From Marsupella aquatica (lineage: Eukaryota; Plantae; Marchantiophyta): a stretch of DNA of 64,000 bases. Under the pieces are notes generated by a model, which did not search any database, was not told where the DNA came from, and saw only the letters and a list, made by a program, of their open reading frames with translations. Each line of letters begins with the position of its first letter. Position 1 is the stretch's first letter. The stretch is taken from positions 13,575,270 through 13,639,269 of the forward strand of contig OZ316892.1 of NCBI GenBank assembly GCA_973895155.1, given 5' to 3'. A program made the translations under genes and the position numbers. This document shows positions 19,801 to 61,200 of the stretch, piece by piece.

Positions 19801-19929
19801 AACTCTCTTGTATGTTCTCACACCACATAGAAGTTGAAGAGATAAGGACCAACTCTTCAACTAGGGTTTACTCTAACCCTAGTTAACATACTAACCACAG
19901 TTCAATCCAAGACTGAGTTAACCTCTACA
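13888..19929 (-). mobile_element. Ty1/copia LTR retrotransposon B, nested in the integrase of A
   Basis: 323-bp LTRs at 13888-14210 (ends TA) and 19607-19929, TSD ATAGG, PBS gctctaatacca. Removing B restores WDPIACKLIVSRDVSFNE in A. gag-pol 14405-~18436 is broken by stops and frameshifts. Confidence 0.97.
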
Positions 19930-31725: not shown

Positions 31726-33323
31726 CCATAATGTCCATATCATATCAAAGAAGTCTGATGTATTCATGCAATTTGTGGAAATGTGAACCAATTGTGATCT
31801 TGCAACCTGTTCTACCCCGTGCTAGCAGTTTACACTGTGGAGGGGTGTTTCTCATACTTTACATAAGTGATTGCTCTCATATCGAGATCATGTTATGGAC
31901 CCATGACAAGTTCTTTCCAAAACTCCTGGCCAGCTTTGACAAACAAACATGATTATTTGTGTTTGTTGTGATATCAGCAAAAATAGTTTAACCTGGAAAT
32001 GGTACAAAGTCAAGAAATTGATAATAAAATATATAATACGAAGCCAACAGGAAGAAATGATCTATTGGAAATGTTTTATTTATTTTTTGAATTATATTTC
32101 ACTTTTTTGCTTAAATTTAATTCTTTTACTCAAACAATAATTACCTGATGACGAGTTAATTTGTGACACATTTGATCACTAAGAAAGAGGACAATGATAC
32201 ACAGTGGTCATGAGAAAAGATGTCATTTGGTTTTTTATTGATAAATGAAATCAAATGTTGATCGCATCTAAGCAATCAACTGAAGAAATTGAGAAAAACT
32301 CAAAAGAAAACCATGAGTTTGGATTTGTGGTACAAAATAAAGAAAAAATGGGTGAGATAGGGGTGGGCAAGGGGGGGAAATGAATTTGGGTTGCAAGTCT
32401 TCATTTAGTTGAACTAATTGAGTTGAGCTTTAGTTTAGGGTCAGCCAGTAATTATTGAAATTTGATATATTCATTTATCAAATGGATCAAATCCTAGTAG
32501 TGAGGCAATGTGGTAGGTTTTTCTGTTTGCATGAATTGCAATGAAAATCCAACAAGGGGGATTGGCAGCAGAAAATACAAAGGATGTAACCATTCATTCA
32601 ATCTTCATGTGTCACAACATGCTAAGGTTTTGGAAATTATGTATATTCTATTCCTTGGGACACCTTGTTGACATTGTCAAAGCATCCATAGCATGTATCA
32701 TGTGTCATACATCATCCAAAGCATTATTCGTAAATTAGTTTGATGACCCCTTGTTTATGTAAGCTTGTTTTATTGATCTATTTGGAACACAGAAGAGTTG
32801 CACATTGGAATAGATAAATAGATGAGAGTACCAAGATTAAATGGAGGATTCTAAATGAAGTGAGTTTTACAGGTAGTTGGAACAATTTCATTGAAGACAA
32901 ATATGAAAATATTCATGGTAATATGGAGGGTAATACTTCATGCAAAATGTTTCCCTTGGTACCTCTAAGTCTATACACTATATGGAACATTCCATACACT
33001 TCATGCAAGATATTATTTTGTCCATAGTAGTTGAAGGGTCTTAGAGTCCCTTGGTATTTGTATGCCCATAGAGTTATGGAATTTCTTATGTTTGCTAGTT
33101 ACTCCTCTATCCAGAGTATCCAAAGGATTTCCTAAGTTAACTTGGTAAATGTTAGAGAAGTTAAAAAGTTTCTTGTGTTTTTACTTTACCTTGGTAAATG
33201 TTAGAGTAGCTGAAGAGCTTTCTATTCATCATTACTTTAAAAAATTATATACTAAATAGAAAATCCAAAGAGGTTACCAAAAATCACTGATATATCAATC
33301 ACAACTCATTCAAAGGTTATTTT

Positions 33324-33826
33324 CTTTCACCCCCATTTTACCCATTTCTTTGTTTATTTGAAATGTTACTTTGCACTATTCCATTGTTTTTACACTTACG
33401 AGGTCTAACTGTTTTTATTTGACTTGTCTCAAACACAAATAGTCAAATTTGGTTCTTCTTGCATAACTAACCGTGTTTGTTTGTGGCCAATATTGTTGAT
33501 GTGGCTACACATGCATCCAAGAATTTTGGAAGGAGGTTCCCATGGAGGTTTGTAATTACAAAGTAGCAAAAATACGAGAGCATGTATTAGTTTCTTCACT
33601 GACCCAAATGGAAGTTCCTTCCAAAATCCCTAGAAGCATGTGCAATCACATCAACATTAGTGGTCACAAACAAGAACTATTCAGTAGGCAAGAAGAACTA
33701 AATCTGACTATTTGTGTTTGAAGCAAGCCAAAGAAAAACAGTTAAACTAGGTAACTCTAAAAACAATGGAAATTTTTTAAAATAACACTTTAAATAAACA
33801 AAGAAATGGTTGAAAAGGGGGGAAAG
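33324..33826. repeat. Long imperfect inverted repeat (foldback/MITE-like), ~220-bp arms and ~60-bp spacer
   Basis: Reverse-complement pairs include ccatttctttgtttattt/aaataaacaaagaaatgg, caaacacaaatagtca/tgactatttgtgtttg and attttggaagga/tccttccaaaat. Confidence 0.85.
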
Positions 33827-34558
33827 ACAATACCTTTGCCTCAGCCTGTGCTTTTGCCCTTGCTAAGGGCTGTCTTGCATGTGATGGTCCTTGGAATTTT
33901 AGCCCTCTACATTCCCAAACATGCAGGGAAAAGGTAGATTTTGTTTGTCCACAAGATCTTTGTAATATTGTGTGGGATTTGTTCTTGTAAAGTAAAATAA
34001 TTTGTTTGTCTTGAAGGAAAGGGTTGGAATCGTTGCAGCCCTTGCCCTTAGATTTCTTCAAATGCTGTTGTCAGGCCTACCTAGGGAAATGAGACAGCCA
34101 TGAAACATTAGCTCAATGATAAGATGACATGAGTGAATGAAAGGGCCATTTTTCAAGGACCGTGCACATGCAAGACGGCCCAAAGTGATGCTGATCCAAA
34201 TTGGACAGGTGTGGCACTTCACCAGAAAAGAAAAACATGAATCATGCTTCTTTCCATTTCTGTTTGTACTCAATTTTTGTCACTGCACCCAAAAGTTTTA
34301 GTAGATGTTCCTCCATCCACTCTTTCCCCATTTTACAGGTTGTTTGCGCAAGGCTGATTGGGGTCGCAAGAGGTTGACCAGGGGCCAAAACTCTCTTATG
34401 CCGCCCTCGTGAGGCCCCGAGTTGTGCACACTAGCAAACCATGCTAGTCTCAGTCCAACCCTTGGACCTGTACTAGCAAAATGCATAGATTGAACTAGGT
34501 GTGGTCTTTAGGTGTGTTCATTGTAGATATAGGCATCAAGCTCTTGCTACCATTTGAG

Positions 34559-36891: not shown

Positions 36892-37356
36892 CACCTCGGG
36901 GGTCTCACTATATGGAGGACCCCCCCATCACCTGCGACGTTTTCATGCCTAGACCCCCATACTTATTAAGTTGAAAATTTTTTTTCCTCCCTCTTTCTTT
37001 CTTCTAAGAGTCTAAAATCCAAATTGTATTGCCCCTATAATTTGTGAAGTAAAGTGTCACATATCAATATAAAATGCCTAGAAAGAAAAGATAAGTCTAT
37101 GTCAGTACCTTGTGAAGTCGTATGTCAGACATGGCACGCCCTGCAACAGTTCTTGCACCTTTGTCGACCTTAAACTTTGATCATTTCAATGCATCATTTA
37201 TATTGTGTACCTAAAAGGTCATCCCAATATAAATCTTACGTGCATAAGTGGGATGGCCTTTAAGGTCACAACATAAATAATCCATTCCACCCATTGATCA
37301 CCAATCCCATGCTCCATCCATACTCCATTTAAAACTTATGTTGAGAGATGTAACAT

Positions 37357-37415
37357 GTGACGGAGGGGAATTGAACCCCTAATTGAGAAAGGATCTCAAG
37401 TTGCCAATCCGTCAC
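37357..37415 (-). ncRNA. D-armless tRNA-like structure with B-box; possible A-box at 37428-37440
   Basis: Minus strand reads GTGACGG ATTGGCAAC TTGAG-ATCCTTT-CTCAA TT AGGGG-TTCAATT-CCCCT CCGTCAC: perfect 7-bp acceptor stem, 5+7 anticodon-like arm and canonical T arm. Confidence 0.6.
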
Positions 37416-37450
37416 CCCCTATCCTATCCCACTACACCCACTAATATTAA

Positions 37451-37529
37451 CAAAATAAAATATATATACAGACTCTCAAAAACTAAACAACAAAATAAAA
37501 CATATATACAGACTCTCAAAAACTAAACA
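37451..37529. repeat. 40-bp tandem duplication in the transposase 3' region
   Basis: caaaataaaa(t/c)atatatacagactctcaaaaactaaaca occurs twice. Confidence 0.9.
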
Positions 37530-37541
37530 GTAACATGATAT

Positions 37542-40500
37542 TCATACCATTGTTTGAAGATACTGATCCAAAGCACGTCTATCTATTGGATCCAACACAT
37601 AGATACGATCCATAACCCCTTCTTTCATGGTTAAACTAACACTAGCAATGACCATTTCAATATCCATCCATTTCAAATCAGTGGTATCATATCTGAATTC
37701 ACTTTTGCTCTTACCAATAGGACTATACCAATTTAACAACAGTTCACAAATGTTACCTGATTGCCCTGCAAGTGGAGTTGGCCTATCCATCAAATCAATT
37801 GGTGACCGACAATTGCCCCACCTACTGCCATACTTCTGTCTCATTTGGACAATCCGACCCAACCAAAAATATTTCTTACCTGCTGAGATTGCCTCCACCA
37901 CAACCTTATTCTTTCCTCCCTTTCTTTTTCCAGATCTAGTACTTGGAGCAAGACTATCATCAGACTCAAATGCAATTGCACAATCAGTGCCAACATCAAC
38001 AAAACATGAGTTAGGATTGACTTCTTGCACTTTTCTCTTGCCAGTACTATAGTATAGCACTTGTTTCACCCTTGTCAGCCTATCTTTTGACAAATGCGGA
38101 TTTCCTACCAACTGGCTTACCAGAGTGGATTTGTAAATCACCTTGCCTTCATAAGTAACAGTAGGCACTACCTTGGTACGATTCTGTACATTAGTTACAG
38201 CATGGACAACTGATCCAAACACATGCCGAACTTCATGACCTAATGTCTCAAGCTCATCTGAGGGGTCTACATCAAACTGTATATCATCTCTGTGTACATC
38301 ATCTGAATGCATCTCAGGAACAACAATGGGATCTGGTTCTGTTAACCATGCATCTATTCTATTCAGATCATCCTCAGGATCTTCCAATTCATGAAAATCT
38401 CCAGTTGGGCGAGGACCTATGTCTGGTGGTTGGTGCTCTACTTGCTCCTCAGAATCATTGCAAACAATTGCTTCCTTCAGAACCACCTCTAGTGGCCAGG
38501 TCTCACTTTCCACAACCCAAGGACATGTCCACCATCTCTTTCTAGCTGCTGGTAAGGAACTTCGTGGAGACATCTGCAATTGATGCATAAGATCCTTAGC
38601 AGCAACAAAACCTTCTTTAAGGGCTGCAACCACTAATTCATTAGTCTCAATGAGAGAATAGTCAAGTAGATTTGGTGCTTCCTCCCCTTCCCCTATAGGA
38701 TGAATCTTCCCCCATACATGATCTTGTTTCTTATGTGAACGACCTATCTTCAAGCCTTCTGGTCCATATTCTAGGGCAGCAAGCCGGTTCAGTCCAACAG
38801 CACTATCCAATAGAGAGCCAAAATCATAATTCCGCTCATGGCCACTCATGCCTCCTACCTTGCTGAAGAAAATCTCACAACAATCTGAACCTAGCAAGTG
38901 GAAGGGAACACCTAGATGTGGGAACTTATCTCGAAAGGCACAAATTAACAGCACAATGAAATGACATGACATGTTAACATCATGAAAAGCCTGAATAGAC
39001 ATCATGTCTTTCTCAGTGTGTGCTGCAAAGTTCCCACCCACTGAATGGTCACCAAACCTCAACCACAATCTCCACAAACGTAGAAAGAATGAAACCTTGG
39101 ATGCTAACACAATACGGGACCTCAAATCATGAACTGGAGAAAAGAAAATATCTAAGTAATCTGCACAAATCTCCAAGTACAACTGAGTTCCTAAACTTCG
39201 TTCATGTTGTACATCTCTCCTCTCATACATATCTTTCAGACATTGCTGCACTCTTCTTGCTGCTATTCGTTGTGGACCTGCCCAATTCTGCCGGTCAGTC
39301 CTATTCACATCATCCCAAGCCATGCCATGTTCATGAATTGGATAATGATTGTAGACATTAGCTACATAAGATAAAGATGCATGTTGATCTCCTAGCACCA
39401 GTAAAGAAGACACTCTGTCTAAGGGGTTTATCATCTTTTTCCCATTATGAGGTTGGTCTTGGTCACCAAAGCCATACAAATCTCCATTTGGTAGAATTGA
39501 AACAGAGTATGTCCACCCTTCCCACCCAACTCCGTACCTTGGGTATGATCCATTCTGCCCTCTGTAATCTTCCAGCATCAGCTTTCGGCGACGTGCATCA
39601 CCATCACTAGCATGTCCAAGCAAAGGGCCTACCATAGCTCTACAATATTCATCCCAAAAAGCCTTTAACTGGACCCAATGCTCTCGTACCCAAGAAGCTG
39701 TGAACTTATTACAAGTTGGAAGTGCACACACAGCCAATTTAGGTAAGGACTCATGCAGAGGATTCACAATCACAACTCGGGCATACATGCACTTGGGGCA
39801 TTGTTCAAATGTACTTACAATTTTATCATACCCCTCATCACCTTCACCAACTAGAATTTCCAAACCATAGGAGCATACATGCTGCTCTGAAGGTCCACAG
39901 AAACCAATGAGAGTATCATACTTTGCCTCCCACCTGAAACACAGACATGCAATTTTTCAATATCACAGCAATTCCAGCCAAGTGCTACTTGTAAAGTCAT
40001 TAAAAAAACAATTGGAAAAATGTCCAGTTCCAATTACCTAGGGCGTTCTTTGATCCTTGTTTCATCCTCAGCAAAGATAACAGGCACATCCCCCTCAATG
40101 CCCAATGAGTGCTTTGCAGCAGACAACACTCTAGCAATCTCCTGAAAGGTTTCCTTCCGTAACCCGGTTCGAAAAGGTGTGAGTTTTGCTCTATCACGTT
40201 TTAGGGTCACAAGGCTAGGGGCTGTCAAGTTTCGTGCAAAACAATGAGCAACTTGACGGCCCCCAAATTGGAACATAGCCTGAGCAATAGCTCGAGTCCT
40301 ATTACTGTAACGATTACCTTTTGGCTTCCTGCCTAAATTGCGAGCTACATCCTTCAAGAAATCCCACAAACCCTCCTTACCACCAAATGCACCATTCCTG
40401 TGTCCATTCAAAATACTCCTAAGAAACAATCTCAAATCCTTCCTGTCTGCTGCAACTCCTAACAACTCCTCTAGTTTTCGTTTCCTGGTGCTCAAGGCAC

Positions 40501-42118
40501 ATACTTTCTGAGCCTGCAAAGCTAACAACCAACGCTCTTTTCGTCGCACAGAGTTCAGGTTGTGCACTTGATCTCTTAACTCTGTGTTGGTCAAATAATC
40601 CAAACGTATACCACCAGCAGTGGTTCGGCTCCCTCTGTGGACTACTGCTTCCGCTTCCCTGTGCACCCGTCCACGAAAATCATCTTCTAGTGTTATAGAA
40701 TCACATTCACTACAAGTTAGATTTTCAAATCCTCCTCCATTCTGTGATAACCTCAAGCAATCCTTGTGTCTAAAACAGCCTGCTATACTCACAACACTCT
40801 CTCTACTTGGATGGAAAACATCCAAGCAACAACTTGGCTCACAATGCCATGTAATTCCCCCAGACTGATCATCTAAAATGCCAGAAATATCATAAGATAT
40901 ACCCTTCCATAACAGTCGAGGCACACCTCTCTCTACCCATAATCCCCAGCAAAGCAAACTCAGACCAAGATCAACAGATTCACACACACCTGAACCTGAA
41001 CCTGAACTGCTGCCTGTCCGGGACCCATCATCTTTAAAGAACTTCAAAATCCCGCTCTGACCAGGATGTAGGTCCCTAGAATCAGTCCTCTTTGGCCTGC
41101 CCCTCTTCCCAGACCTCAAGGCAAGCATTTTTGTGTCATGCCTAGTCTCCAATGCATCCAAGTGATCTCGACTCACTAAGTGTGTCCTCAAATTGGGCTC
41201 CAAGGTAAGCTTCTTGGGGCACAAGTCAGTGTGAAGCATTCCACAGACAGTACATCGAACCTTAAACAGGAAAGACCTGTTTACATACTCAGGAGTACTG
41301 GGATCAGGAACAATAGAGAATAGTTTGCCATCATCCCCAAGCTCAGCATTCAATCGTTGAACTATCTCAACACCTACTTTGATGGCGTCTGCATGATCAT
41401 ATTCTGGCTTCTCAGAGATGTCTGCTACCTGAACCAAAGTAGAAGGAATGCCCCTTCTCCGACAATAGTTATCCTTGTGCTTATTGAAGACCAAGTGTTT
41501 GGTCTTAAAATTACTAAAGCAATTGGAGATGGATTTAGGGTTCTGAGAGTTGTCTGCATTGCCATAAGTTTCCCTACATTCAAGACACTCCAGATGCCCT
41601 CGAACATCTGTCCCCTCATCCCAGGTACGAATTCTCCAATTGTGATCACCATAACCCTTCTTATGTACCCATTTCTCTAACCTCATCCACTCATCTTTCC
41701 ATAGCTTTGATGGGACATCTCCCATCAATTGTGACTCAAAAGAAGCCCTTACAGGGGAGGGTGCTAGTGCCGTTGGCCCCAGTTGTGGTGTCCCAGTATT
41801 TGGACCCAATGATGCAGGAGTGCAAGGATGACAGGGTACTGGTGGGATCCTCCCACCATCTCCAAGTTCTTGTTGTACAACAATAACTCTTCCATCCAGC
41901 TCAGACAGATCAATTAATTTCTCATGTACAAGTTTCACTCGACCAGGAAGTCTCTCATCCCAAAAATCAAAGTCAAAGTCTAGAGTAGAGGCAATACGAG
42001 CCCTAAAATCATGTAGGGTGTGTCCTTCTTTGAATGACAAAACACAAATTGGTAAATCAGCCTTGTCATCCCCAACTTTGCGTATTAATTTAACAGAGTT
42101 GGGTTTAGGGGCTGCCAT
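37542..42118 (-). CDS. P-element-like DDE transposase, ~1490 aa, two exons (42118-40038, 39933-37542)
   Basis: A 104-nt intron (AG|GTAATT..TTTCAG|G) joins the 694-aa and 773-aa ORFs in frame to give IFAEDETRIKERPRWEAKYDTLIGFCG. Further motifs: HASDGD, DQPHNGKK (DxxH), DRQN, GTQLYL..YLDIFF, LGSDCCEIFFS. No internal stops. Confidence 0.85.
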
Positions 42119-42613
42119 TGCAATACAAATCTAGAACATGCATAGCACCATTGCTTTTGGAGTTGATAACAGAAAGACCTGCACAAATACATTTGAAATA
42201 CACACAAGGGAAACACATTAGGATCTTCAAGAGATGCAATGACAACATACACATTCTCATGTAATGTACATAATGTCAGCATACATTTAACAATAGAAGT
42301 GCTAATAGGCCAAAACACTTTATAATGCAATCCATCATACATGCAAATGTATTCAGTGAAAATCATGATATACCGCTAAAGTTGGATAAAATATCTTTGG
42401 ACAAAATATCCTTTTCGCCTGCTTTTCTAACAATTCCCGAAGTTTAGTGCTTCTGCTCATCAAAATGCAGCACTATTAGTGACCTTAATTATGACAAAAT
42501 GTCAACACTAATAAAATTGGGTACTACCACCCATGATGCACCTTAAGTATGTGCCTTGCTCATACCCCACTAAGACGTTGAAACCTAAGTAATAGGTTTG
42601 TTCATTATTCAGA

Positions 42614-43288
42614 TCATTGGAGCCATGAAATGTGGTCCCTGATTGGAGTCTTGAGGTGTGGATCAATAGGATGACGGGGGCAATAAAACATCTGTCGCTG
42701 TTGTCCATGTGCTTCATGGTCCCAGATGTCCCTATCATGAGCGAACCCTTTGCTTTTGATCATCTGGAGACAATCTGTATGCCAGGCATTTGGACATCGT
42801 AGACATTGTACCATGTTCTTGACCATCTGACCCTCAAGACTCTGATAACATGTCACACATGTATGCAGTGGGCAGGACTTTGCATCAGCTACCAAACACC
42901 CAAAGCAATAAAATCGTACACAAAAACGATCAGAGCATTTTCGCACAATTGTAGGTGACGGTCCCACAGTGCGGCACCCATAACACATGGCCTGGTCCTG
43001 GTTACAATTTGGGCAAAACCATGGCTTCCCTCCATGATGGAGGGGAAGGACTACACAGGGGCAAGAGTCATTAGGGGCTTCATCTCCAACCACATAATGA
43101 AATTGCCTGTGACATGGCCCATCACAAATTACCAACTTCCCACCATGCTCACAAATTGCACAAACATGAGGGCTAGTTTGTAGAATCTCTTGCTCAGAGA
43201 ACAACGGAATACGCAATACCTCTTCCAAAGAGGCTCCTCTGTCAGAGGACTGTGTTGCTTTCTTTATGTTTGAAGTCCTTGTCGGCAT
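42614..43288 (-). CDS. EDM2-like composite PHD-finger protein (transposon cargo)
   Basis: CAICEHGGKLVICDGPCHRQFH..WFCPNC..CYGC..CSDRFCVRFY..CPLHTCVTC..QCLRCPNAWHTDCL..FYCPRHPIDPHLKTPIRDH. The Cys/His spacing and the YCxxHxIDxxLxTPxRDH ending recall the EDM2 PHD cassette. The true 5' end is uncertain. Confidence 0.8.
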   Translation of the reverse strand: MPTRTSNIKKATQSSDRGASLEEVLRIPLFSEQEILQTSPHVCAICEHGGKLVICDGPCHRQFHYVVGDEAPNDSCPCVVLPLHHGGKPWFCPNCNQDQAMCYGCRTVGPSPTIVRKCSDRFCVRFYCFGCLVADAKSCPLHTCVTCYQSLEGQMVKNMVQCLRCPNAWHTDCLQMIKSKGFAHDRDIWDHEAHGQQRQMFYCPRHPIDPHLKTPIRDHISWLQ

Positions 43289-43604
43289 GGTTCAACTGCA
43301 ATCATCACAAAGCACATCACATATGAGGGGGACATGATGATAGTGAGCAATCCATAGACAAAGATAAGGTTAATCATAGCACCTGCTCCAATGATCTGCA
43401 AACCTCCCTCCCAGATGAAGTCAACTACACAGTGCAACCTGAACACCCACCAACCAAGACATACATAAATACAATGCCAGCTTGCAAAACTTTGCCACAT
43501 AATGGGAATGAAAAATATTCTCATATATCATGGATGGTACAATTGCAGCCTTGCAAACAAAGGCCTAGTCATATATGAACAACGCATCCATGTACTATCA
43601 AGGA

Positions 43605-44003
43605 CTACAATGTCAAGCATCCATGGGTTGTAACCTTAGCTTGATCTGATATACTATCTGGGGCTACAATATCAAGCTCAGTTGAATGTGGAATACTATC
43701 AGGGACTACAATGTCAAGCGTGTCCGGGATGACAATCTTGCGTAAAAGACACTCATTTTGAGGCCAAATGGTTGGCCTTATACAAGAGCACTTCCAACGA
43801 CGTGTGACAACTTTGCCATGCTTTCCCATGTATGTCCTAGTAACAAGCCTTCCACGCATTTTCAAGCAGAAGCAATGGAACCATTCAAAATTCCCATCAC
43901 CAACCCTGCACTTGACACAAGGTTCACACCAGCAACATTCATCTGGATGCTGCAGAAGGAGCTTCTCATAATTCGCTTCTAATGTAATGCCCAATATAGC
44001 CAT
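43605..44003 (-). CDS. Small Cys-rich PHD-like ORF or exon (cargo)
   Basis: CCWCEPCVKC..EWFHCFCL..WKCSC; good start context (gccATGg); possible donor after 43635; DIV(V/A)PDSI repeats. Confidence 0.5.
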   Translation of the reverse strand: MAILGITLEANYEKLLLQHPDECCWCEPCVKCRVGDGNFEWFHCFCLKMRGRLVTRTYMGKHGKVVTRRWKCSCIRPTIWPQNECLLRKIVIPDTLDIVVPDSIPHSTELDIVAPDSISDQAKVTTHGCLTL

Positions 44004-45242
44004 GGCACTATTTTTTTATACTCGGTGAATGGCCAGACGATTAGACGTGCAATGACAGGCAACTTACAATTCACTAGGTACACTATGTGTTCTAGCAAAC
44101 TGCTTCACCGCAAGTGTTGGTGCTCACTGCTGCAAGCGCTGATGACAACCTCTACAATTCCTTTTGCAACCTGTGAACAAAATTGAAACCACCATTCAAT
44201 TTCTAAGTTTCAAAAACTTCCCATTACATGAAGACAACCAATTGGCCATGCATGTTACTACAGCAATAAAATAATAACCCAATCGCTCAACAGACCTGAA
44301 TAGCTAACCTGAATAGGATCAAGTTCAGAATCCAGAATGGTAATGCCCTTGCCCAGAAGCTTGAGAAACAAAAGAGAATTTAAAATCAAGCACGAGCGTC
44401 ATCCACGTCTTGACCAGGCCCGCCACCCAGTATGGCTGGAGGCTGTGGTCCCCCCTGGCTGAGTAAACACTTAAAGAAGTCTTCTCTTCTAGATGACTTA
44501 AAGAAAATTGCAGGAACCAGCCAACGGGACACCAAGGCATGTAATAGAGAACCAGATTTGTGCGGGTGTGTGGGGGACGACAGAAGTCAAGTTACATGAT
44601 TTTTTTCCTGGGGTCCAGCCCATGGATGGAGATCATGTAAGGTGGTCAATCATGGCAAGTGCAATCATTGGAGACCTGTACTCGCGGTTACTCTAACGAT
44701 GCATCCAAAAAACATGTGCGTCAAGTCGTCGATGCGGACACAGAAGGAGAGATGAGTATGGACAACGTCGAGACAAATGACGACAATACTGAGCTAGTAT
44801 TCGGCTGGGAAGTTGGAGCTGGATCTCAGCAGTGGCTCCAAACCTTATCTGCGAGGGCATGGCGAGCTCTGGAGGACAAAATACTCAAAGAGCTTATCGC
44901 CATTCACGGAGCTCAGAACAGGAATTTTATAGTTGAAAAGCTAAACGGGCAGATCAGGTGCTTCCTCGTCTATGACCGCTACCAGATCGACTCTAGGTGT
45001 GCCATGCGTGATAGATTTGGGCGTCAAATAGTAGCAAGCAAGCAAGTACGATCGTCAAAGTAGGCAGCGCCTACCTCCCGATTGAGCAACGCAGCAATGC
45101 AGCTCCAATCCTGGCACTCCGGTTTGAGATATCGCAACACTCCCTGCAGTAGCCACCTCCCGTTTCAGCAAGCTAGCAGCTCCCATTTTAGAAAGCAGCA
45201 ATGCAACACTCTCGACACCCACCTCCCGGAGCGCAACACTCT

Positions 45243-46090
45243 TGCTCGATCCTTCACTCCCGGGTTCACTTCAAGCAGCAGCGCAGCTACAAAGTCTCGC
45301 TCTCCCCTTCACTCCCGGGTTCACTTCAAGCAGCAGCGCAGCTGCAAAGTGTCGCTCTCCCCTTCACTCTAATCAGCACACGCAACTGAGAAGTCTCGCT
45401 CTCTCCTTCACTCTAATCAGCGCACGCAACTGAGAAGTCTCGCTCTCCCCTTCACTCTAAGCAGCAGCGCAGCTGAGATGTCTCGCTCTCCCCTTCACTC
45501 TAAACAGCAGCGCAGCCAGGAACTCTTGGTCGATCCTTCACTTCAAGCAGCAACGGCAACAGCACAGCCGAGAGCGCAACACTCTCGCTCTCCCCTTCAC
45601 TCCAAGTAGCAGCGCTTCACTCGATCCTTCGCTCGATCCTTCGCCGAGAACTCTCGCTCTCCCCTTCACTCTCGCTCTCCCCTTCACTCCTTCGCTCGAT
45701 CCTTCGCCGAGAACTCTTGCTTGATCTTTCACTCCAGCCGCAGCAGCAACGCAGCTCGATCCTTCTCCGAGAAATCTTGCTTGATCCTTCACTCCAGCCG
45801 CAGCAGCAACGCAGCTCGATCCTTCACTCCAGCCGCAGCTCGATCCTTCACTCCAGCCGCAGCTCGATCCTTCACTCCAGCCGCAGCTCGATCCTTCACT
45901 CCAGCCGCAGCAGCAACGCAGCTCGATCCTTCACTCCAGCCGCAGCAGCAGTGCAGTCGAGAGCACAACAGGAGTCGATCCTTCACTCCAGCAACAGTGT
46001 AGTCGAGAGCACACTCTCGCTCGATCCGACCTTCACTCCAAGTGCAGTCGAGAGCACACTCTCGCTCGATCCGACCTTCACTCCAAGCAG
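45243..46090. repeat. Complex tandem array inside D with 24-, ~45- and ~55-bp units sharing a CCTTCACTC core
   Basis: cgatccttcactccagccgcagct repeats at 45817-45910; ccttcactctaatcagc..tctcgctct units at 45361-45510; about twenty core copies by eye. Confidence 0.9.
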
Positions 46091-48734
46091 GAGCACAACT
46101 GGTTTAGACCCCGTTTAGGCCATTTGCTGCAAGGTACAAACAAAAGAGACTCTGTTGAGGCAAAGAGCGGGTGGGGCCAAAGGGATAGTGGAGGGAAACG
46201 ACACGGGAGGGACTGACAAGGGCCAATTGAGGTAAACGAGACACGTTAAACAGAAAAATTTCAAACTTAATCCCGGTCAAACCCTAAACGTGAGTCCCCA
46301 TAAAACCAGATCATTCTCAAATTCTTGCCATGTTAACATATTAGAAAAATTAGGAAAATATATTGGGAATGTTATGTGTGCCACGTGTACCAATGACATA
46401 GTGACATGTGTACTTTACATAGTCCGACACAAAGACCCCCTAACTTCTTTGTATGCCTTCCATCTACAAAGTCAAAAATATTAATATCCCTATTATTCTT
46501 ACAAGTTGTCCAACATATAAAGTTGGCCCTATTGTTCTTACACAAATCTTCTTAAGTCTTCCGAGAAACCCAATTAACGGACCCTATACTTCGTCGCACG
46601 TGATATGAGATTTTCGCGGAGTGAGACCCCCGAGATGGTGACGGGGTCACTGTTTGCCAGAACCATATCGTAACTTAGCGTTGGATTATAATTGTGTATA
46701 TAAACTGAAAGACAAATCATTTGTCGTGTAAATCATTTGATATCTGACATTATACAAGGAGAACTTTGCTCTAAACCGCCTCCGCATGACTCATTGATCA
46801 TGTAATCACCATACCTAGTAACGAAGGTAGAGCCTGACCGCTGTCTTCAATGTGGAAACTGTCTCTGTAGTTATCAAACACTCAGCACCTTCCTCACATG
46901 TTAAGTAGATATTGAATGGCAAATGACAAAGTTCATAAACTTTCTGGCCTTTGGCAACCCAAACTTTTAAAATCAAATAAAACAATGAAGCCGGGCAACT
47001 AAGCCTTGCCCAACTCATATATAGGCAGCACCATAGATTGACCCAATCCATTGCTCAGGGCTTTCCCCGGCAGTTTGGGGAGGCATAAACTGCCACTCTC
47101 CCCATAGCAAAACCTGGTGAATCCACAGTACTAAAATAAGTCAATAATATTCTCAAGAAATTTAAAAAGTGCACCATTTTGTCCTCCCTGAAGCTAGTGG
47201 ACAGTGGAGGTTTAAGCACCTGTTACATGCAACAGAGCCCTTATCATACTCTACAAGCAGGTCTACAAGCCCCTCCACGTGGCAGGGAATTTGGCAGGTA
47301 ATTTGGCAGGTAATTGAACCTTACACCTTTAGATCCTTGAGTCAATCTTCTTCTTAGCTCAACAAGTCTCACTCAAGTTTTACTTTTACATCCCAACTAA
47401 AATGCAAGATAGAAACTAGAAAAGTAGCTGGCTTTGATTAGTTGGCTAGGGAATTAGCCTGGAACCGAGAGGTCCCAGATACAACCCCCCTCCACACGCA
47501 AGGGATGTAAAGGCAGTGTGGAGATGTGCAATGGTGGGAGTATTGGTTTCTCCTTGTTAAGAATTGCTCTTAGTCTTGTGACTCATAGGTTATGGCACTT
47601 AGGCTAACCACAGTTAGGATCTTAGCTGAGGTTAGGTTAGTCGTGTGTGACCTTGTATATACCAGGGCTAGTGTAAGCCGCTGGTGTGGTGTGCTTACGG
47701 ATTGTAACGGAGAAACTTGAGGAAGAGGGAGAGCATGTGTGTTCGTTTACTCTTGAAGTAAAGCTTGAGTGTTCGTGTGGACGTAACCTTGGAGAAGAGG
47801 TGAACCACGTAGAGATTGTGTCAACTACGTGTGCATGGAATGAGTCATGGTTGTATGGTCGTTGCAAATGACATCTTAGTTCAACAATTGGTATCAGAGC
47901 AAGCCTGGGAGGTGACGTTGAGGTGATCAAATTTTTGTGACGTGTTGGCGACGGTTTTTCCAGCAGTTAGAGTTGGTGGATTTCACGGAGATCTATTGCA
48001 TGGAACTTGGAGGTGTTGGGCTCAACAGATAGATCGGGGCAAGGGCTTTCCGACGGTGCAAAGAAATCTCTGAACAGAGTTCGTGGTGCGGAGGAATTCA
48101 TGTTTCCGTCGTTCTGGATTTTTTGTGATTCGTGTTCGACGGTTCTTTGGGGGGGGGAACTGAGATCGTTTTCCCGACGGTGTGAGCTTTGTGGTGCACG
48201 AGGCGTCACAATCTTTAGCTCAAATCGTAGATCGGGCAAAGCTGATCATTTCGGTAGCTGGTTTGCTATCGAGGGTGTAGTAGTGCGATGTACCAAGCAA
48301 AAGAGCCGTTCTGAGTTTCTGACTGGCTATGGAGTCTTCTTTTGACTGAAGCGCGGTTTCTTGTCGTTGCGTTCGACTCAAAGGAAGAAACGGGAAGTGC
48401 AACGGCTCAACGGAGAGATCGCGATGCAGTGGTCATTTTGAGTCCAAGATTGACACTTGACGCGGAGTGAAGGAGTCGTGACGGGAATTTTTTACTCTGC
48501 TAGAGTTGCAAACGGTGCCGGTGCAATTCGGTAACATTTCCCGTCGACAACTAGTCTTTATCTGGTGTAAAGTGATAACGGCAGTGTGAGTAACCCAACA
48601 AATTTATTTTTTGTGCACATTTTGCCTTAGAATAGGGCCTTTTTGGTGGTGTGTATACACACCCTCCCGACCCTTGCACCCCTGTCAATACCCCGTTGGC
48701 AACCCCCTCCTCCTCCTCGCTAATACTCCCATCG

Positions 48735-48890
48735 CGGACGTCCCGGCCGTCCCAGACGTCGCAACCGGCACAGACGTCCCAGACGTCACGGCCGGCGAGG
48801 ACGTCGCGGCCGTACCGGACGTCGCAGCCGGCACGGACGTCCCAGACGACCTGACTGTCGCAGGCGTCTCGGACGTCCCGGCCGTCGCAG
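48735..48890. repeat. GC-rich degenerate ~18-bp repeats in the leader of E
   Basis: Recurring gacgtcccagacgtcgc and ggacgtcccggccgtc units. Confidence 0.75.
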
Positions 48891-49605
48891 CTCCATCCCT
48901 ACCTATTTTGACTTGGTTTTTTACTCCACGGCCCCCTATGCACTGCCTGGCCCGTCACGCGTCGCCTATACGCGGATGCACCTTTTTTAAGACAGTATTT
49001 TTGTGTTAAGGGGCTTAAACCCCCTTAGGCCCGGTTTTTTAATCCTTTCCAGGCTTCTCATTCGTTAAACGGCATCTTGGGCCCGGTGACCCACCAAATT
49101 AACCGCTTGGACAGGGGGAACGACCCCCTGTGAGACCTGTTGCACAGTCCAAGGAATATTCCGAAAAAAACAGAGAGCTGTTTTTCGGCCTTTAGTCAAA
49201 GATTCCAAGGTCCGAACAGTAACTTTTTTTAGATCTTTTTTGGCGAGAACGTAGCCACTGAAGCTAGCAACTCGGTGCACCACTCGATTTGAAGTTCTGA
49301 CGACGGGTGGTACTTGGAATTTTTCTTATTCCCCAAGGTGGTCAAAACGGGGAAGAATTTTTGAGTTTTACCCACCCCGACCAAACGTGAAAAAGTTTTT
49401 CGTCGGAACTCGATTTCAATTTTGGATTTCAGCGTTGGCTTGCTAGGTTGGTGGGCTAAGTGGCGGTGATAAGTTTCAAGTTTTTTGGAAAGTTGCGAAA
49501 AATGACATTTTTTCGTGATTTGGATTTGAGTCAACGAGAAGGAAGGAAGGAAAAAGCATATAAGGAGTAGCACAGCAATAGCACGTGGAGAACATTGGGA
49601 GGATA

Positions 49606-52600
49606 ATGATGGCATCTAAGTTTGGAGGTGTCAAGTTTGAGGTGGAAAAATATGATGGGCGCACAGATTATTTGCTATGGGAGAAGCAGGTTAAGGGAAT
49701 TCTTCGTGCTATGGGCCTAGATTATCTGCTATCGACTCAGGAGGAGTCTAGCAGTGAGGAGGAGATTCCGTTGAGGAAATGGAGGCAAGAGCAAGTGATT
49801 GCTGTGAATGTGGTTATGCTGTATCTGAAGCCGCATATCATTAAGAAGCTGGACGACTACGAGGATTGCATATCCTTATTCAAGGCCCTCAGAGAGAAGT
49901 ACTACCGAGAGGATGCCTCAGATCGGTTGTACAAGAAGTCTCTCTTGATGAGCTTGAGGCTAAAAGAAGGAGGCAAGCTTCGAGATCACTTGGATGAATT
50001 CGACAGCCTAGCTGTAGATTTGTCAAATCTTGGCAAGGGAGTGGAAGATGAAGATAAGGCATTGCTTCTTCTCAGTTCCTTACCCCCTCGTATCAAAGTT
50101 TGAAGCAGGTTCTCTTGTATAGAGATCTCAAAACCATTTTATATGATGAGGTGGTAAGCTCTTTGTTGTCAGATGATGCACAGAAGAAACTGGGTCATGC
50201 CCAAACACCATCTTCATCTGGCAGTGCATTGAATGTAAATCGCGGGAGGACTCAACAACGGATGACTGGTGAAAACAGGTCCTTTTCACAAACGTACCCC
50301 TCACGGAATAGAGGCAAGGAGAAGGCTCACTCTAAGTCTAGATCCAGGTCTAGAGAGAAATCTCTAGAAAGGAAACCAATTATATGCTGGAAATGTAACA
50401 AGCCTGGCCACATGAAACGAGACTGTCGAGTCAAGCAGACTCATCAACCATCAGCGAACGCAACCACTGATGTTGATATGATTGACTTGCTTGATGATGA
50501 AATCTTGTGAAGTCCAGATGTTGCCCTTTGCATTTCATCCAGTAACAATGGTGATGAATGGATTTTAGATTGTGCCTGTACCTATCATATTTGTTGTATG
50601 AAAGAGTTTTTTACTTCTTACTCAGTATCAACCGGTTCCGTGTTGATGGGGAATGATCATCCTTGTCAAATTGTTGGAATTGGATCCATGAAAATTCGGA
50701 TGTTTGATGGAGCTGTCCGAACAGTGAGTAATGTCAGACACATACCTGACATGAAAAAGAACTTGATTTCTCTTGGAATGTTGGAAGCAAATGGATGTCA
50801 GTGGAGTCTGCTGATGGTATTCTTCAAGTGTCAACCGGAGGCAAGGTTGTCATGAAGGGTAAGCGGCACAGGAATCTATATTTGTTGGAGGGCAACGTGA
50901 TTTGTGAAGAAGCCAATGTAACTAGATCTCAAGGCGAGATGACTCAGTTATGGCACTGCAGATTGGGACACATGAGTGAAAAAGGTTTTGCGGTACTTCG
51001 CAGGAAAGGACTTCTTTCTAATTTGGAATCTACTAAGCTAGATTTTTGTGAACACTGTGTGCTTGGGAAGCAGCACAAGAGAACCTTTGGTGTTGGAACT
51101 CACAATACCAAAGCTATACTTGAGTATGTACATAGTGATGTGTGGGGTCCAGCCCCAACTCCCTCACTTTTTGGAAAATTGTACTATGTCACGTTCATTG
51201 ATGATTACTCACGGTATGTGTGGATCACATTTCTACACGCCAAGTCTGAAGTTTTTGGCACTTTTAAGAAGTGGAAAGCCCAAATTGAGAATCAAACTGG
51301 ATCCAAGGTGAGATATCTGCGATCAGATAACGGCGGGGAGTACAGTTCAAGTGAGTTTGAACTATATTGTGTAGAGCAAGGGATTACTCGTCATCTCACG
51401 ACAGTTTATACTCCTCAACAGAATGATGTTTGTGAGCGGCTAAACCGAACACTATTGGAGCGATCGAGGAGTATGTTGAGCCAATCAGGTTTACCACATG
51501 AATTTTGGGCTGAAGCTATAAATACAGCAGCTTATTTGGTAAATCTTTCTCCTTCAAGTGCAATCAATTTCAAGACGCCGTTTGAAATGAGATATGGACG
51601 GCACGCAGACTATCAGGTTTTGAGAGTCTTTGGAAGTGATGCATATGCTCTCACACCTAAGCATAATCGATCTAAACTAGATTCTACTTCCAAGAAGTGT
51701 CTTTTTCTTGGTTATCAACCAGGTGTGAAAGGTTATAGGCTATGGGATCCAGAAGCTTGTACGTTGCTTGTCAGTAGAGATGTATCCTTTAATGAATCCA
51801 GATCATCAAAGGAGGGGGAGAATGCTCAGGCTTCCCGTACTGACAAAGGTAAATCTCCTATCCTGGACCATGTTGTGGGGGAGATTGGTCATGAGAGTTT
51901 TCATGACATAAATGAAGGAGGTGCTCCGAGAATGGATCTGGTTCCGGTATTGGAACAAGAGGAGCAAGTTGTTGTTGGAATACCTCAAATTCAACCAACA
52001 GAACAAGATCAACCAGAATCATCAGCTAGAAAATCAAGACGTACTACTCAAGCTCCTACAAGGTATGGACAATGGACAGATTCATCAAGGTTAGATGATG
52101 TTGACATTGCACCTGAAGATGATGACAGAGCACTGATCTTGGAAGAAGGAGAACCTTCTCCTTATCATGAGGCGTGCATTTCAGACGAGAAAGATGAATG
52201 GAATGCAGCGATGCAGAGGGAGTTGCAATCTTTAAGTGACAACAGAACATGAGAGCTGGTGCAACTGCCAAGTGATCAACAAGTGGTGGATAGCAAATGG
52301 ATTTACAAGCTGAAGGACAACTCTTCAGATGGAGGAGACAAGATATACAAGGCAAGGCTTGTTGCCAAGGGATTCACTCAAGAGAAGGGAGTGGATTACA
52401 ATGAGGTCTTCTCTCCAGTTGCCAAGTATTTCACGATACGAATTTTGTGTCAACTTGTTATGTTTTTTGATCGATCTGGTGTTAGATCAAATGGATGTTG
52501 TTACTGCTTTTCTCTATGGCACCTTGGAAGAACAAATTTTCATGAGGCAACCACTGGGCTTTGTGAAGAAGGGCCAAGAGAGTTTAGTTTGCAGGTTGCT

Positions 52601-53741
52601 TAAGTCCTTGTATGGATTGAAGCAAGCTCCTCGACAATGGAACAAACGGTTTGATGATTTCATGCTTGCACAAGGATTCACTAGGATGGTGTATGACCCT
52701 TGTGTGTATACAAAATCAGTCAAGAATGGTGTGTTTGGTTTGCTCATTCTGGTGCTCTATGTGGATGACATGTTGATTGCGGCTAAGGATCAAACTGAGG
52801 TTGACAAACTCAAAGCAAAATTGAGTTCTGAATTCCGAATGAAGGATCTTGGGAAAGCCAAGAAGATCTTAGGTATGGAGATTACGAGGAACTTTGAAAC
52901 TGGACAATTGTGGCTGAATCAAGGCAAGTATGCTGAAAAGGTACTTGCAAGATTCAACATGGAAAATTGTAAGCCAGTAAGTATTCCTTTGGCTCCACAT
53001 TTCAAGTTATCATCGGCTTTCTGCCCCACGGATCCAGTGGAGAGAGGCTTGATGACTAAGGTTCCTTATGAGAAGGCAGTGGGCAGTCTAATGTATTTGA
53101 TGACATGTACCAGGCCTGATCTAGCCCTAGCAATGGGCAAAGTGAGTAGATTCATGTCAAATCCAGGGAAGGTACATTGGGAGGCTGTGAAATGGATTCT
53201 CAGGTATCTTAAGGGCACAATAGACTATGGTCTGTTATTTGATAGTAGATCAAACAAAACCAAATCTTTGGTTGGCTATGTAGATTCTGACTACGGAGGC
53301 TGTCTGGAAACAAGGAGGTCAACGACTGGGTATGTGTTTACTCTTGGAAGAGGATGCATAAGTTGGAGATCTACCTTGCAGAAGTGTGTATCTCAGTCTA
53401 CTACAGAAGCAGAATATGTTGCAGCAGCAGAAGCAGCAAAGGAAGCAATTTGGTTGGATAAGCTGGCCACTGAGATGGGATTGGAGCATGGAAAAATGAC
53501 TCTTCATTGTGACAGCCAAAGTGCGCTTCACCTAGCTATAAACCAGGTTATGGATAGCAGGGTGAAACACATTGACATCAGGTACCATTTTATTAGGCAA
53601 GCAATGTCTGATAAAATGTTTGAGCTAGTCAAGATTGATGGAAAGCTCAACCCGGCTGATGCTTTTACCAAAGTGATTCCTTTGGAGAGTTACTCAAGAC
53701 ATCGTGCTACTTTGCAAGTTTTGCATTTGCAGCACAAGTAG
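49606..53741 (+). pseudogene. Element E gag-pol with frameshifts and stops
   Basis: EKYDG..DYLLW, CWKCNKPGH, WILDCAC, HSDVWGP, RSDNGGEY, YVDDML and KHIDIRYHF motifs; lesions near 50090, 50810, 52250 and 52470. Confidence 0.95.
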
Positions 53742-54359
53742 AGTAACTTAATAATATGTAATTTTTGTATATGGGTTACTCAATCCTGTTATGGCTACGG
53801 CTTAATTCTAGTTAACCCTTAGTTAACCTTAAATGGTTTTTAGGGGGACACCTATGGTTTTAGGTGATTGTCTAGAATTTCCCGTTGAGTATCTCATATG
53901 GATAGCAGAAATTGCAGTCTCCAAGACTAGAGTCAAGGGGGAGTTTGTTAAGAATTGCTCTTAGTCTTGTGACTCATAGGTTACGGCACTTAGGCTAACC
54001 AAAGTTAGGATCTTAGCTGAGGTTAGGTTAGTCGTGTGTGACTTTGTATATACCAGGGCTAGTGTAAGCCGCTGGTGTGGTGTGCTTACTGATTGTAACG
54101 GAGCAACTTGAGGAAGAGGGAGAGCATGTGTGTTCGTTTACTCTTGAAGTAAAGCTTGAGTGTTCGTGTGGATGTAGCCTTGGAGAAGAGGTGAACCACG
54201 TAGAGATTGTGTCGACTACGTGTGCATGGAATGAGTCATGGTTGTATGGTCATTGCGAATGACATCTTAGTTCAACACTCCTCAGCCTCTAGCTGGTCAC
54301 TTTGGGGCCCTAGTCCAACTCTCTCTCCTTCCTAGTATGGGTAGTGTTGGATCCCTGAC

Positions 54360-58200: not shown

Positions 58201-61200
58201 CATGGGTAAACATCGGCTGGAGGCGGAGCTGTTGTACCCTCGAAGGATCGGTCGACTTCGTATATTTCCAGGCTCCAAGACAGATGAAGTGTGTACGCTA
58301 TCTTACGTCGGTGAAGTCTATATATTTACGGAAGTTCTTTATCGCAAGATTTATCGGAATTTGTGTTTTGAAGTACTCCTGCTGCGAGGTGACTAAATCA
58401 ACCATAACTCAAATCCTTTGTTGGTGGATACAGAAAATTGCACCAGTTGATCGGTTCGTTGTGGCAGAGTATCTCCTGGATGTCCTTTTTTATCTGAATG
58501 GCTGGTGAGATCAATGTGTCTTCATAGAAAGTCGTCAAATTCAAAATCTCTCCTTGTGAATTCAGTTTTTGCTTATTTTTCTTCAGACAGTTAGCTTTAG
58601 TGTCGAATGTATGGCTTGAAGAAATAGTGCTGGCTTGAAGATGCCCTAGAGTAATGAATACCCTCGATGTTAAGCTGCCTGCGATCAATCTTCCCGGAGA
58701 CGACTATTAGTCATTCTGCCTGGTTTGGCATTATACCCAACCTTATCACGGGAACTTGTTATTAACGAAGTTGTTTTCCTTGTAGTCGCAAAGAGTGTGC
58801 AGCATACATGGTGGGCCTTCCTGTGCCATTCCGTTATGAGTATCTCATGGCTGAGATAGTTTTTTCACAGGTCTTCGATCTCGCCTGACTAATCTTTTCC
58901 AAAAAGAAATCCGTTTAATTAGGAAAAGAGTTTTGTCTTTGAATAGCCATTCAAACTGAAAGACCTGACTTTAGAAAGGAACCGTATTGGCTGTTTCAAT
59001 TCTGGAGGCGAAACGTGTAAGGTTGCTAGCGTAGTATATGTTTCCTGCACAAACTCTAGTTGAGTAGCTACTTGACTTAAACTGTGCTGTACATAATCAG
59101 AAAAGAATGTCTTGAGTAAAGCAGTCCTAATTTAGCTCAAAAGTTGCAGCTCCGTTTCGTTATTGACGATTTCCTGTTTGACGTGCCGACAGCTCCTCCT
59201 ACTTCCAGCACCTCCATTCCGACTGATCTACTATACAGTTGTCATGGTGGATCTCTGCAAGGTGGCTTCTTTGTTCTGCACATTCAGAAACCAATAAATC
59301 TGACTCACTAGTTGTGCAAGCCCTCTGGATTGAAGCTGAACAGTACCAGTTTAAGTAGACATGCTTCCGCTAGATAAAAGTACGGCATACATTGGCTGAA
59401 CTAGATTTCTTTTAGAGAAATATCTTTGTTTGCTAAATGTTAGGATTTTCTGGGAGATGTAGCTTAGAAGGTCTGAAGGCTTGATTGGTTGGGACTTCCA
59501 GGCACTCCCTGGGGCTTTTCCAGCTGTCGTAGCTGGTGCTGTTCGGATCCTCTTCGAAAAAGTTGGGGATATGGATGTGGAGTGCCGGATCCGGCTAGTG
59601 CAATGGCTCTCACATCATTTGTATGTCTCAATATGTTCCCCCTGTAAGATAGACATTGTAGTTTGACTTCAAGGTACAGTTTTCGTCTAGTGTACTAGAT
59701 ATCGAAGTGCGATCGTAGCCTTGATACAGAAGCACGTTTGTCATCTATTCCACTGCTTCCCACCGTGTTTTTCTGGTACTCGTGTATTGTAATTATGGAT
59801 TATGGGTGATGTTCTGCTGAAGCTGCTGTTTGTTTCCAGGTCAAATTTCCAGTTTGTATGGCCTTGGGAGGAATGGTGTCACGTTTTGGAGCAACCAAAA
59901 TGGTCACCACAACGGGTGTTTGCTCAGGAAGTCCTTGATAAGGAGGTGCGGTTGGCGTATTATGACAAGATAAAGGAGGTACTTGTGACAGTAACGAATG
60001 TCTATCACCACAGGCATGGACATTTTTGTTCGTTCTTGTCCAATTTAAAATTTAGATGCTTTAGATGGACTGGCAGTGTTTTTTTCCTTGTGTTTGCTTA
60101 GTCTCAGACTAATTGTAAATATTTTAGATGATCTGTCAGATTTCATAGTAGGATATTTCCCGCTGTTTTGGTAGTAGTTCGCCCTCACATCAGCCAAATT
60201 AAAACCGTGAAGCGAGTATATCCTGGAGCAGCAGAATTGCGTTTTACTGTGCACGCGGTCTTGTGGCTTACATATTTGGTCTAGGTTCCAATGTTAAAGT
60301 CAAACTACAAATTCACCTGGTCTGCTTCTGTCACATTTTTTAAGTGTTTTCTGGTGTGGTCGATATTGTGTCCAACTTGAACAGAGTTTGCAGAGCAGTC
60401 CCAGATTAATTGATCTCCTTCCGCCTCGAAGTGCGCCATATTACAAGTACGGTCCAGATCACATGGGAGAAGCGTCACAAGTAGAGGTTGCTATTGCTAC
60501 TGAGTTGATAGGAATGACGAGGGCAAAGAAATCTGCAAGGGATATTCAAGTGTTCATCGAAGAGAAAATTTTGCCAAATCAAGGGCAGAAGATGGCTATC
60601 GAAGTTTCTGTGCAAACATTTCTATACATTGGTTCGAAGAGTTTTACCCACACTGTTACCATTCTAGAAAAGTATGGTACAGTGTTGAACAAACTGACGT
60701 CATCAACTCAGGACTGGCACATCGCAATGATTGAAGCTGTGGCTGAATTTTGGAAATACTCATCTCAGATGACTGCTATTGTTATTGATCGCATGATGGG
60801 GTATCGTATTGTTTCCAATTTGGCAATTGTGGCATGGGTGTTTTCCGCGGAGAACGTGAAAAAATTTCATACCACGGACCATGTCTGGGAGGTGAGCCTG
60901 CTTTTCAAAGGGTGAATTTAGGCAAAACGCACAGGAAAGTTGTTTGAGCGGCAGTGATGAAGTGTTTTACAATAGAAGCAGGTGAAATTTTTCTATGATA
61001 TAGTTGAACAAATTAAGAGGTCTTATCTGTCATTGTATGATCTTTGAGATGGCCTTCAGTTTTGATATGCTTGATATTCTTTTGTGAAATAGCAGCTTAC
61101 AAGAGTTTTTTTTCTTTCAATATTCAGATTCTGGGCAACGCAATCAATAAAACAAATAATCGCACGGCAGATTTGCGGAAGGACTTGACTACAATTGAAA

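Follow-up and report, generated by a model that had tools for sequence, protein, structure and literature searches.

A multi-copy, very probably P-type DNA transposon with an EDM2-type PHD gene in the liverwort Marsupella aquatica

CA...TG termini are typical of the canonical P, Galileo and 1360 families of DNA transposons, and a DxxH motif is a signature of P transposases. Within this superfamily (Drosophila P element, Galileo, 1360; THAP9), P elements are described with 8-bp target site duplications (TSDs) and Galileo and 1360 with 7-bp TSDs (PMC3698922); the six or seven plant terminal inverted repeat (TIR) superfamilies listed in Table 1 of PMC9033089 and in PMC10741241 do not include P. 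The element described here occupies positions 36895–46634 (9,740 bp, genes on the minus strand) of a 64,000-bp stretch of the genome of Marsupella aquatica (contig OZ316892.1, positions 13,575,270–13,639,269; the window), and there is very little doubt that it is a transposon of the P type. It shares with the P superfamily the transposase core fold as modelled for a complete relative (locus L002), the DDE and DxxH residues, and a short TIR with a sub-terminal inverted motif; an 8-bp TSD flanks L002, and none was found at a second relative (L001) or at the window locus. It differs from P in the length of the transposase (1490 versus 751 aa), which has no detected THAP domain and a predicted C-terminal BAH/chromo-like barrel, as well as in its extra open reading frames (ORFs) and land-plant host, and its termini (CTCGGGGG or CCCGGGGG) are unlike those of canonical P, Galileo and 1360 elements. 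The modelled catalytic fold thus places the element in the P superfamily, and outside the canonical P, Galileo and 1360 families because the termini differ and Pfam matched no THAP domain.

The element is a multi-copy DNA transposon of autonomous type with three intact minus-strand ORFs, which encode the transposase, a protein related to the triple PHD of EDM2, and a small orphan protein. EDM2, part of the ASI1-AIPP1-EDM2 complex, is described as binding H3K9me2 chromatin and suppressing proximal polyadenylation at transposon sequences (PMC7529245). Among transposons with accessory genes, the Arabidopsis VANDAL elements (MuDR) are likewise DNA transposons in which an accessory gene is accompanied by an array of tandem motifs in the non-coding DNA, and their VANC proteins bind DNA motifs (PMC5735166). 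A parallel with VANC was drawn in an earlier note on this DNA, made from the sequence alone, and it stands loosely: the accessory gene and the array are both present, but the transposase belongs to another superfamily, and the accessory protein is kin to a host histone reader and would be expected to read histones instead of DNA motifs. SET genes in HarbingerS and oomycete MuDR elements, and TET/JBP genes in fungal DNA transposons, have been proposed to act in silencing evasion (PMC12730594); the liverwort element resembles these in having a host-type epigenetic gene on a DDE transposon, but the gene encodes a reader without a catalytic domain and lies in a plant P-type element. The literature searched shows no land-plant P element, no EDM2-type gene borne by a transposon and no DNA transposon with a tRNA mimic; a prior entry for the lineage may exist in sources beyond this scope (Repbase, subscription papers, supplements).

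Ends, copies and transposase

Copies were judged from six public runs of three organisms, in which 38–86% of the element's sampled words are present. Flank comparison and junction contigs place the ends at a 15-bp TIR, CTCGGGGGTCTCACT, whose two copies match perfectly (36895–36909, the 3′ end relative to the genes, and 46620–46634, the 5′ end); a contig from run X1 covers 46606–47584 without any difference. The earlier note had set CA...TG termini at 36892 and 46637. The corresponding inverted repeat pair (36892–36909 and 46620–46637) is present in the sequence, and its outer three bases are a chance match: the CAC at 36892–36894 is assigned to the Copia target because a 93%-identical Copia copy (11329–13692) runs on beyond the same CAC and the element flanks differ before 36895. 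Copia contigs depart from the window at 36894, and unlike flanks precede 36895 in 24 (X3), 11 (X6) and 5 (X2) element contigs (agreement 0.39–0.5), with at least 24 different flanks joined to one element end within the single run X3. The proposal that the TIR pair delimits repeated copies was therefore correct, with the ends shifted inwards.

Two complete relatives have similar ends. That of L002 is a 26-bp TIR whose first 8 bases are as in the window TIR, flanked by an 8-bp TSD; L001 has a similar TIR, and no TSD was found there. The termini are CT...AG in the window element and L002, and CC...GG in L001. About 30 nt inside each TIR lies a 13-bp inverted motif, ATCACSTGCGACG (36927–36939, with its partner at 46592–46604), which is a candidate transposase-binding site; the near-end motifs are similar in L001 and L004. 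Many contigs are alike over the terminal 49–56 bases and differ beyond them (loose ends after 36943 and 36950), which suggests further families, or miniature inverted-repeat elements, with the same end. Flanking 8-mers tend toward RTNNNNAY in the L002 TSD (184–191), the right flank of the window element (46635–46642) and the flank consensus of X3 and X6, and the left flank in the window does not fit; a target preference is possible.

Contig depth rises sharply inside the element. In X1 it is 371–763 across all 22 internal bins versus 25–64 in the two right-flank bins, and single element contigs have depths of 454–526 versus 3.9 for the contig across the right junction; in X3 the corresponding values are 1,636–2,162 for element contigs and 18.5 for a flank contig. 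Over the transposase, both accessory ORFs and the tandem array, depth exceeds the flank value about 100-fold, and X1 element contigs have 0–2 differences from the window per 0.4–1.1 kb. We infer that there are about 100 near-identical, recent copies carrying all parts. A joint from 37130 to 46378 represents an internally deleted derivative.

The transposase is encoded by two exons (40038–42118 and 37542–39933) and is open over 1490 aa once a predicted 104-nt GT-AG intron (40037–39934) is removed, so that it is intact as had been proposed; relatives have the junction uninterrupted. Exon 1, which is 23–39% identical to relative loci, contains Cys/His-rich zinc-finger-like segments, a helical region and D685, the latter within an AEDET motif common to relatives covering that region. 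Exon 2 contains D804, D853-x-x-H856, E1047 and the C-terminal barrel; D853, H856 and E1047 are invariant among 29 sequences, with D804 in at least 90%, and these residues together with D685 are the likely catalytic set. Listed variants in the transposase are synonymous in 9 of 12 cases (4.1 expected, P 0.004).

Sequence searches of the transposase (including 29 family members) gave no Pfam match and no Protein Data Bank (PDB) match. The fold was modelled from residues ~500–1520 of the intronless L002 protein (pLDDT 76), which is 42% identical to window exon 2. Its best match is the Drosophila P transposase (Foldseek E 2e-9; VIA-align Z 25.4, rmsd 3.8 over 408 residues), which bears out the P-like assignment of the earlier note, and the next match has Z 9.0; the structural matches that follow P transposase include RAG1 and Transib, and the MULE-related ISCth4 scores Z 9.0. 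Residues 860–1009 of the L002 model match BAH domains (DIM2, DNMT1, EBS, ORC1b, AIPP3, ASI1; Z 5.5–7.0) and chromo/Tudor folds (Z 5–6.6), and predict a BAH/chromo-like beta-barrel at window residues ~1335–1479 (37580–38012, minus strand, mapped via the L002 alignment); with Z below 8 this may be merely a common barrel. A profile of the C-terminal part gave no significant PDB sequence match and no usable atlas match, and no THAP domain was matched by Pfam in the window transposase or four relatives.

Searches found 66 transposase homologs, including many Riccia 'hypothetical' proteins and one from Adiantum, which escape Pfam; in a quick tree (44/47 rows) the window transposase clusters with five Riccia and two Logan proteins (SH-aLRT 98), which makes a liverwort host likely. 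No relatives came up in scans of viral and prokaryote collections. Superfamily detail is missing from the available text of the paper on the Riccia sorocarpa genome (PMC11735767). An intact, likely recently amplified P-type element in a land plant extends the P superfamily and explains unclassified bryophyte repeats.

Three smaller observations on the transposase may be added. A 40-bp tandem duplication in its 3′ region (37449–37529) is missing from some copies, where joints skip 44–46 nt. The first ~90 residues (41801–42118, minus strand) keep their position among relatives and resemble by eye a small ubiquitin-type fold, with no Pfam match. Distant relatives (P0062, P0063, P0051, P0056) include sources outside land plants, such as a Nymphon striatum protein with a precomputed match to Pfam PF21787.

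The EDM2-type gene and other accessory ORFs

The EDM2-type gene (42614–43288, minus strand) encodes 224 aa and matches Pfam PHDvar_NSD with 33.1 bits (cutoff 27; E 5.8e-8), in agreement with the EDM2-like PHD identity first suggested from sequence. Like EDM2, it has an atypical triple PHD, and its ligand pattern and C-terminal motif are those of EDM2. Unlike EDM2 it consists of the PHD part only, with a short basic N-terminus, is intronless and repeat-borne, and is without RFD-like or methyltransferase-like domains; eight long EDM2-type relatives among those scanned carry DNMT1-RFD. Six homologs of 213–304 aa are 44–82% identical to it and keep nearly all zinc ligands, the basic N-terminus and the same C-terminal end, and identity to host-type PHD pieces is 26–33%. 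A profile search of 1.84 billion representatives ranks five short stand-alone proteins first, followed mostly by EDM2-type host proteins, including the named Selaginella EDM2 and Marchantia and Riccia genes. The EDM2 proteins are thus the next relatives, and capture of a host histone-reader domain, as had been proposed, is upheld for this ORF. A tree was computed for 19 stand-alone rows together with 37 chosen rows of host type, and one branch (SH-aLRT 94) separates all the stand-alone rows from the others; since they form a separate, conserved group, the stand-alone form is old and not a fresh capture.

None of 247 fetched proteins matches both the PHD and transposase profiles, longer fused forms lying outside this length-limited search. 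A structure model of the PHD protein (pLDDT 44.6) is too low in confidence for use, and a complex prediction with the C-terminal part of the transposase, made without alignments, scored 0.00 and gave no answer.

Both listed variants in the EDM2-type ORF are synonymous (P 0.09 alone), as are five of six in the second accessory ORF (P 0.015). Pooled, 7 of 8 are synonymous (2.6 expected, P 0.002), so that the accessory ORFs lean towards synonymous change; the proposal of the earlier note, which neutral evolution would have refuted, was not refuted by this check. That the PHD gene is a selected gene of the element is probable.

The second accessory ORF (43605–44003, minus strand) encodes a Cys/His-rich orphan protein of 132 aa and is probably coding, because of its synonymous variants. 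It had been read as a further PHD; this resemblance is by eye only, and the assignment was dropped, there being no Pfam, homolog or atlas match and no match to the EDM2-type profile. Its cysteine spacing also departs, by eye, from what we take to be the PHD pattern. Further upstream and on the opposite strand lies a decayed MYB-like fragment (44857–44943, plus strand; Pfam Myb_DNA-binding E 0.1, below cutoff), a candidate captured host piece, and given its state some of the cargo may be passive.

Accessory content varies between L001, L002 and the window element. Locus L001 has a different extra ORF of 174 codons downstream of its transposase gene (7003–7524, plus strand), with no Pfam match, and carries repeats of its own near the 5′ end.

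Tandem array, tRNA-like module and hairpin

The tandem motif array reported earlier was found upstream of the genes at 45157–46087. It is CpG-rich, and contains CCTTCACTC 18 times versus once per strand elsewhere in the window. Its observed/expected (O/E) CpG ratio is 0.95 versus 0.24–0.38 in the ORFs, so that it has escaped the CpG loss seen there, which fits either a methylation-protected region or a recent expansion. Since histone tails, and not DNA motifs, are the expected ligand of a PHD, the array is unlikely to be a PHD target; it is more likely transposase- or promoter-related, and bound by the transposase or by host factors. Transposases alone are described as able to activate their own copies (bioRxiv 10.64898/2026.08.24.746577).

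A 60-nt tRNA-like (mascRNA-like) module (37356–37415, minus strand) starts 127 nt beyond the transposase stop codon, and its parts are a 7-bp acceptor stem, a linker containing GG, a stem in the middle and a canonical T-arm with GUUCAAUUC. The fold proposed in the earlier note is supported (z −4.66; 0/200 shuffles), whereas identity as a true tRNA gene was rejected: ARAGORN reports none, and Rfam scores remain below gathering (mascRNA RF01684, 23.0 versus 42.5; tRNA RF00005, 20.8 versus 29). A scan for a T-arm plus acceptor stem, designed after the match had been seen, has one match in the window and 25 relative loci together and none in 1000 random element-size sequences; the module is absent from distant relatives by this motif scan (0/25 loci) and by ARAGORN (0/17 loci). 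Three listed substitutions break no pair, and depth peaks over the module in all four of four runs. It resembles mascRNA and menRNA, 58–60-nt tRNA mimics with an acceptor stem, a T-arm with a UUC loop and a conserved GG (PMC11693755), but differs from them in having no D stem, in its Rfam scores, and in the lack of upstream triple-helix motifs by eye. A diverged copy (37354–37401) with different flanks occurs in all four runs, with a depth in X6 similar to that of the element, and may belong to another repeat family. The GG is retained in this copy; the 5′ strand of its acceptor stem, combined with the change at 37362, would turn a G-C pair into A-U if, as seems to be the case, both lie on the same molecule.

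About 70 nt downstream of the module is a near-perfect, miRNA-precursor-like hairpin of ~100 nt (37188–37287, minus strand; z −7.95 and 0/200 shuffles for 37180–37295), which was absent from the earlier note. One arm (37190–37227) has no listed substitutions and a single 1-nt deletion, and the other has five substitutions, three of them pair-breaking on the minus strand. It is possibly a transposon-borne small-RNA precursor, and is comparable to rice miR820, a hairpin within a CACTA DNA transposon that targets OsDRM2 (PMC3459959). If true, a tRNA mimic and a hairpin at the 3′ end of a transposase gene would amount to an RNA-processing route that is new among DNA transposons.

Counter-silencing, competing explanations and genomic surroundings

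The explanation we favour, tentatively, is that a multi-copy, likely recently amplified cut-and-paste transposon of P type keeps an EDM2-type PHD gene for counter-silencing. The transposase would bring the two ends together via the TIRs and the sub-terminal motifs, and would insert with an 8-bp duplication, as indicated by the fold, the residues, the ends and L002. AG acceptors precede two of the start codons, by 7 nt for the PHD gene and by 12 nt for the transposase, and a promoter near the CpG-rich array could drive all three ORFs through alternative 3′ splice sites; with the transposase the last of the three and acceptors before two starts, its mRNA would then have to read through 3 kb of element. 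The PHD protein would likely read H3 marks in the chromatin of the element itself and counter silencing there. Being PHD-only, without the other EDM2 domains, it could serve as a decoy or an adaptor on chromatin marked by H3K9me2, where host readers would be displaced or borrowed so that full-length transposase RNA is made, and the tRNA-like module could be an RNase P/Z processing site at the RNA 3′ end. Provided that the PHD gene is a selected gene of the element, counter-silencing is somewhat favoured as its role. Very doubtful is the fuller version, a layered kit in which the BAH-like barrel and the PHD protein mimic two ASI1-EDM2 readers and secure full-length transcripts, while an RNase P/Z-cut tRNA mimic forms the RNA 3′ end and frees the miRNA-like hairpin to act against a host silencing gene.

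A number of points weigh against this explanation. There is no TSD at the window locus, where the flanks TCTGGCAC and ATGGTGAC are unrelated; the Copia sequence on the left is not resumed on the right, and the two flanks likely stem from different events (a deletion next to the element, recombination of one copy with another, or a join made in assembly). Co-occurrence of the parts is read from depth, which is not a copy number, and no contig covers a whole copy. The selection counts are small, with 40 variant rows out of 590, of which 20 fall in the three ORFs and two in the EDM2-type ORF. These ORFs are depleted in CpG (O/E 0.24–0.38) like the neighbouring Copia DNA (0.36–0.43), and the element body has therefore been methylated over time. 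The PHD gene is present at none of the 25 relative loci, most of which have less than 1.5 kb of upstream DNA; since it is missing from L001 and L002, which are complete, full elements lacking this gene exist within the lineage. The expectation that PHD ORFs recur across copies thus holds for copies of the window element, where their depth equals that of the transposase, and fails for these relatives. Further, the PHD tree is a quick search whose support of 94 falls under the 95 mark.

The PHD protein could instead be a targeting cofactor which, with the BAH/chromo-like barrel of the transposase, steers or licenses insertion into marked chromatin. There is precedent in the RAG2 PHD, which guides RAG1, and in the chromodomains that guide some Gypsy integrases; CRM elements are described as guided by a chromodomain (PMC9033089). 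The resemblance of the transposase C-terminus to BAH and chromo folds, the place of RAG1 and Transib among the structural matches that follow P transposase, and the insertion of the window copy in a Copia nest all agree with such a role. The barrel is nevertheless present in relatives without the PHD gene and its Z-scores are below 8, while Copia DNA is very abundant in the runs (by contig depth), so that a Copia-nested insertion is expected by chance; this alternative is rather unlikely. It is unlikely, too, that the PHD ORF, orphan ORF, MYB-like and tRNA-like pieces and hairpin are passive cargo, captured or nested fragments that were copied along while the element recently multiplied, as happens in Pack-type elements. 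With most X1 copies near-identical, one founder suffices for the even depth, and the decayed MYB-like fragment in the same interval, the unlike accessory content of L001, L002 and the window, and the second context of the tRNA-like module agree with this alternative. Yet the accessory variants are mostly synonymous, and the PHD protein is far closer to stand-alone proteins that share its start region and its end than to host-type pieces, which implies long stand-alone retention; the decay of recent, neutral host fragments in Pack-type elements fits the MYB-like piece and not the EDM2-type ORF.

Highly improbable is that the stand-alone PHDs are a host gene family of non-seed plants from which the element acquired one intact member. 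Such a family would account for their deep, conserved group, but of the 11 members that were looked up none corresponds to a named gene in the annotated genome of a plant (longest contigs 0.8–13 kb), whereas host EDM2 relatives map to annotated genes of Marchantia, Riccia, Calypogeia and Selaginella. If the PHD-only gene is a true accessory, the element would be a transposon exploiting a host heterochromatin reader, distinct from VANC, SET and TET cargo. Sister elements without the PHD gene provide natural controls, and liverworts are transformable.

The element lies in a cluster of transposons bordered by host genes, with the N-terminal region of a PI4-kinase at 1335–4388 (minus strand) and a MIF4G-like domain gene at 60298–60912 (plus strand). 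Neighbouring retroelements are decayed, as had been noted earlier, with ORFs in pieces in all five Copia stretches examined; nested Copia elements at 11329–23592 and 47554–54277 have long terminal repeat pairs that are ~94–97% identical and broken ORFs. A 530-bp self-inverted segment (33311–33838; 76% identity) is a possible foldback element.

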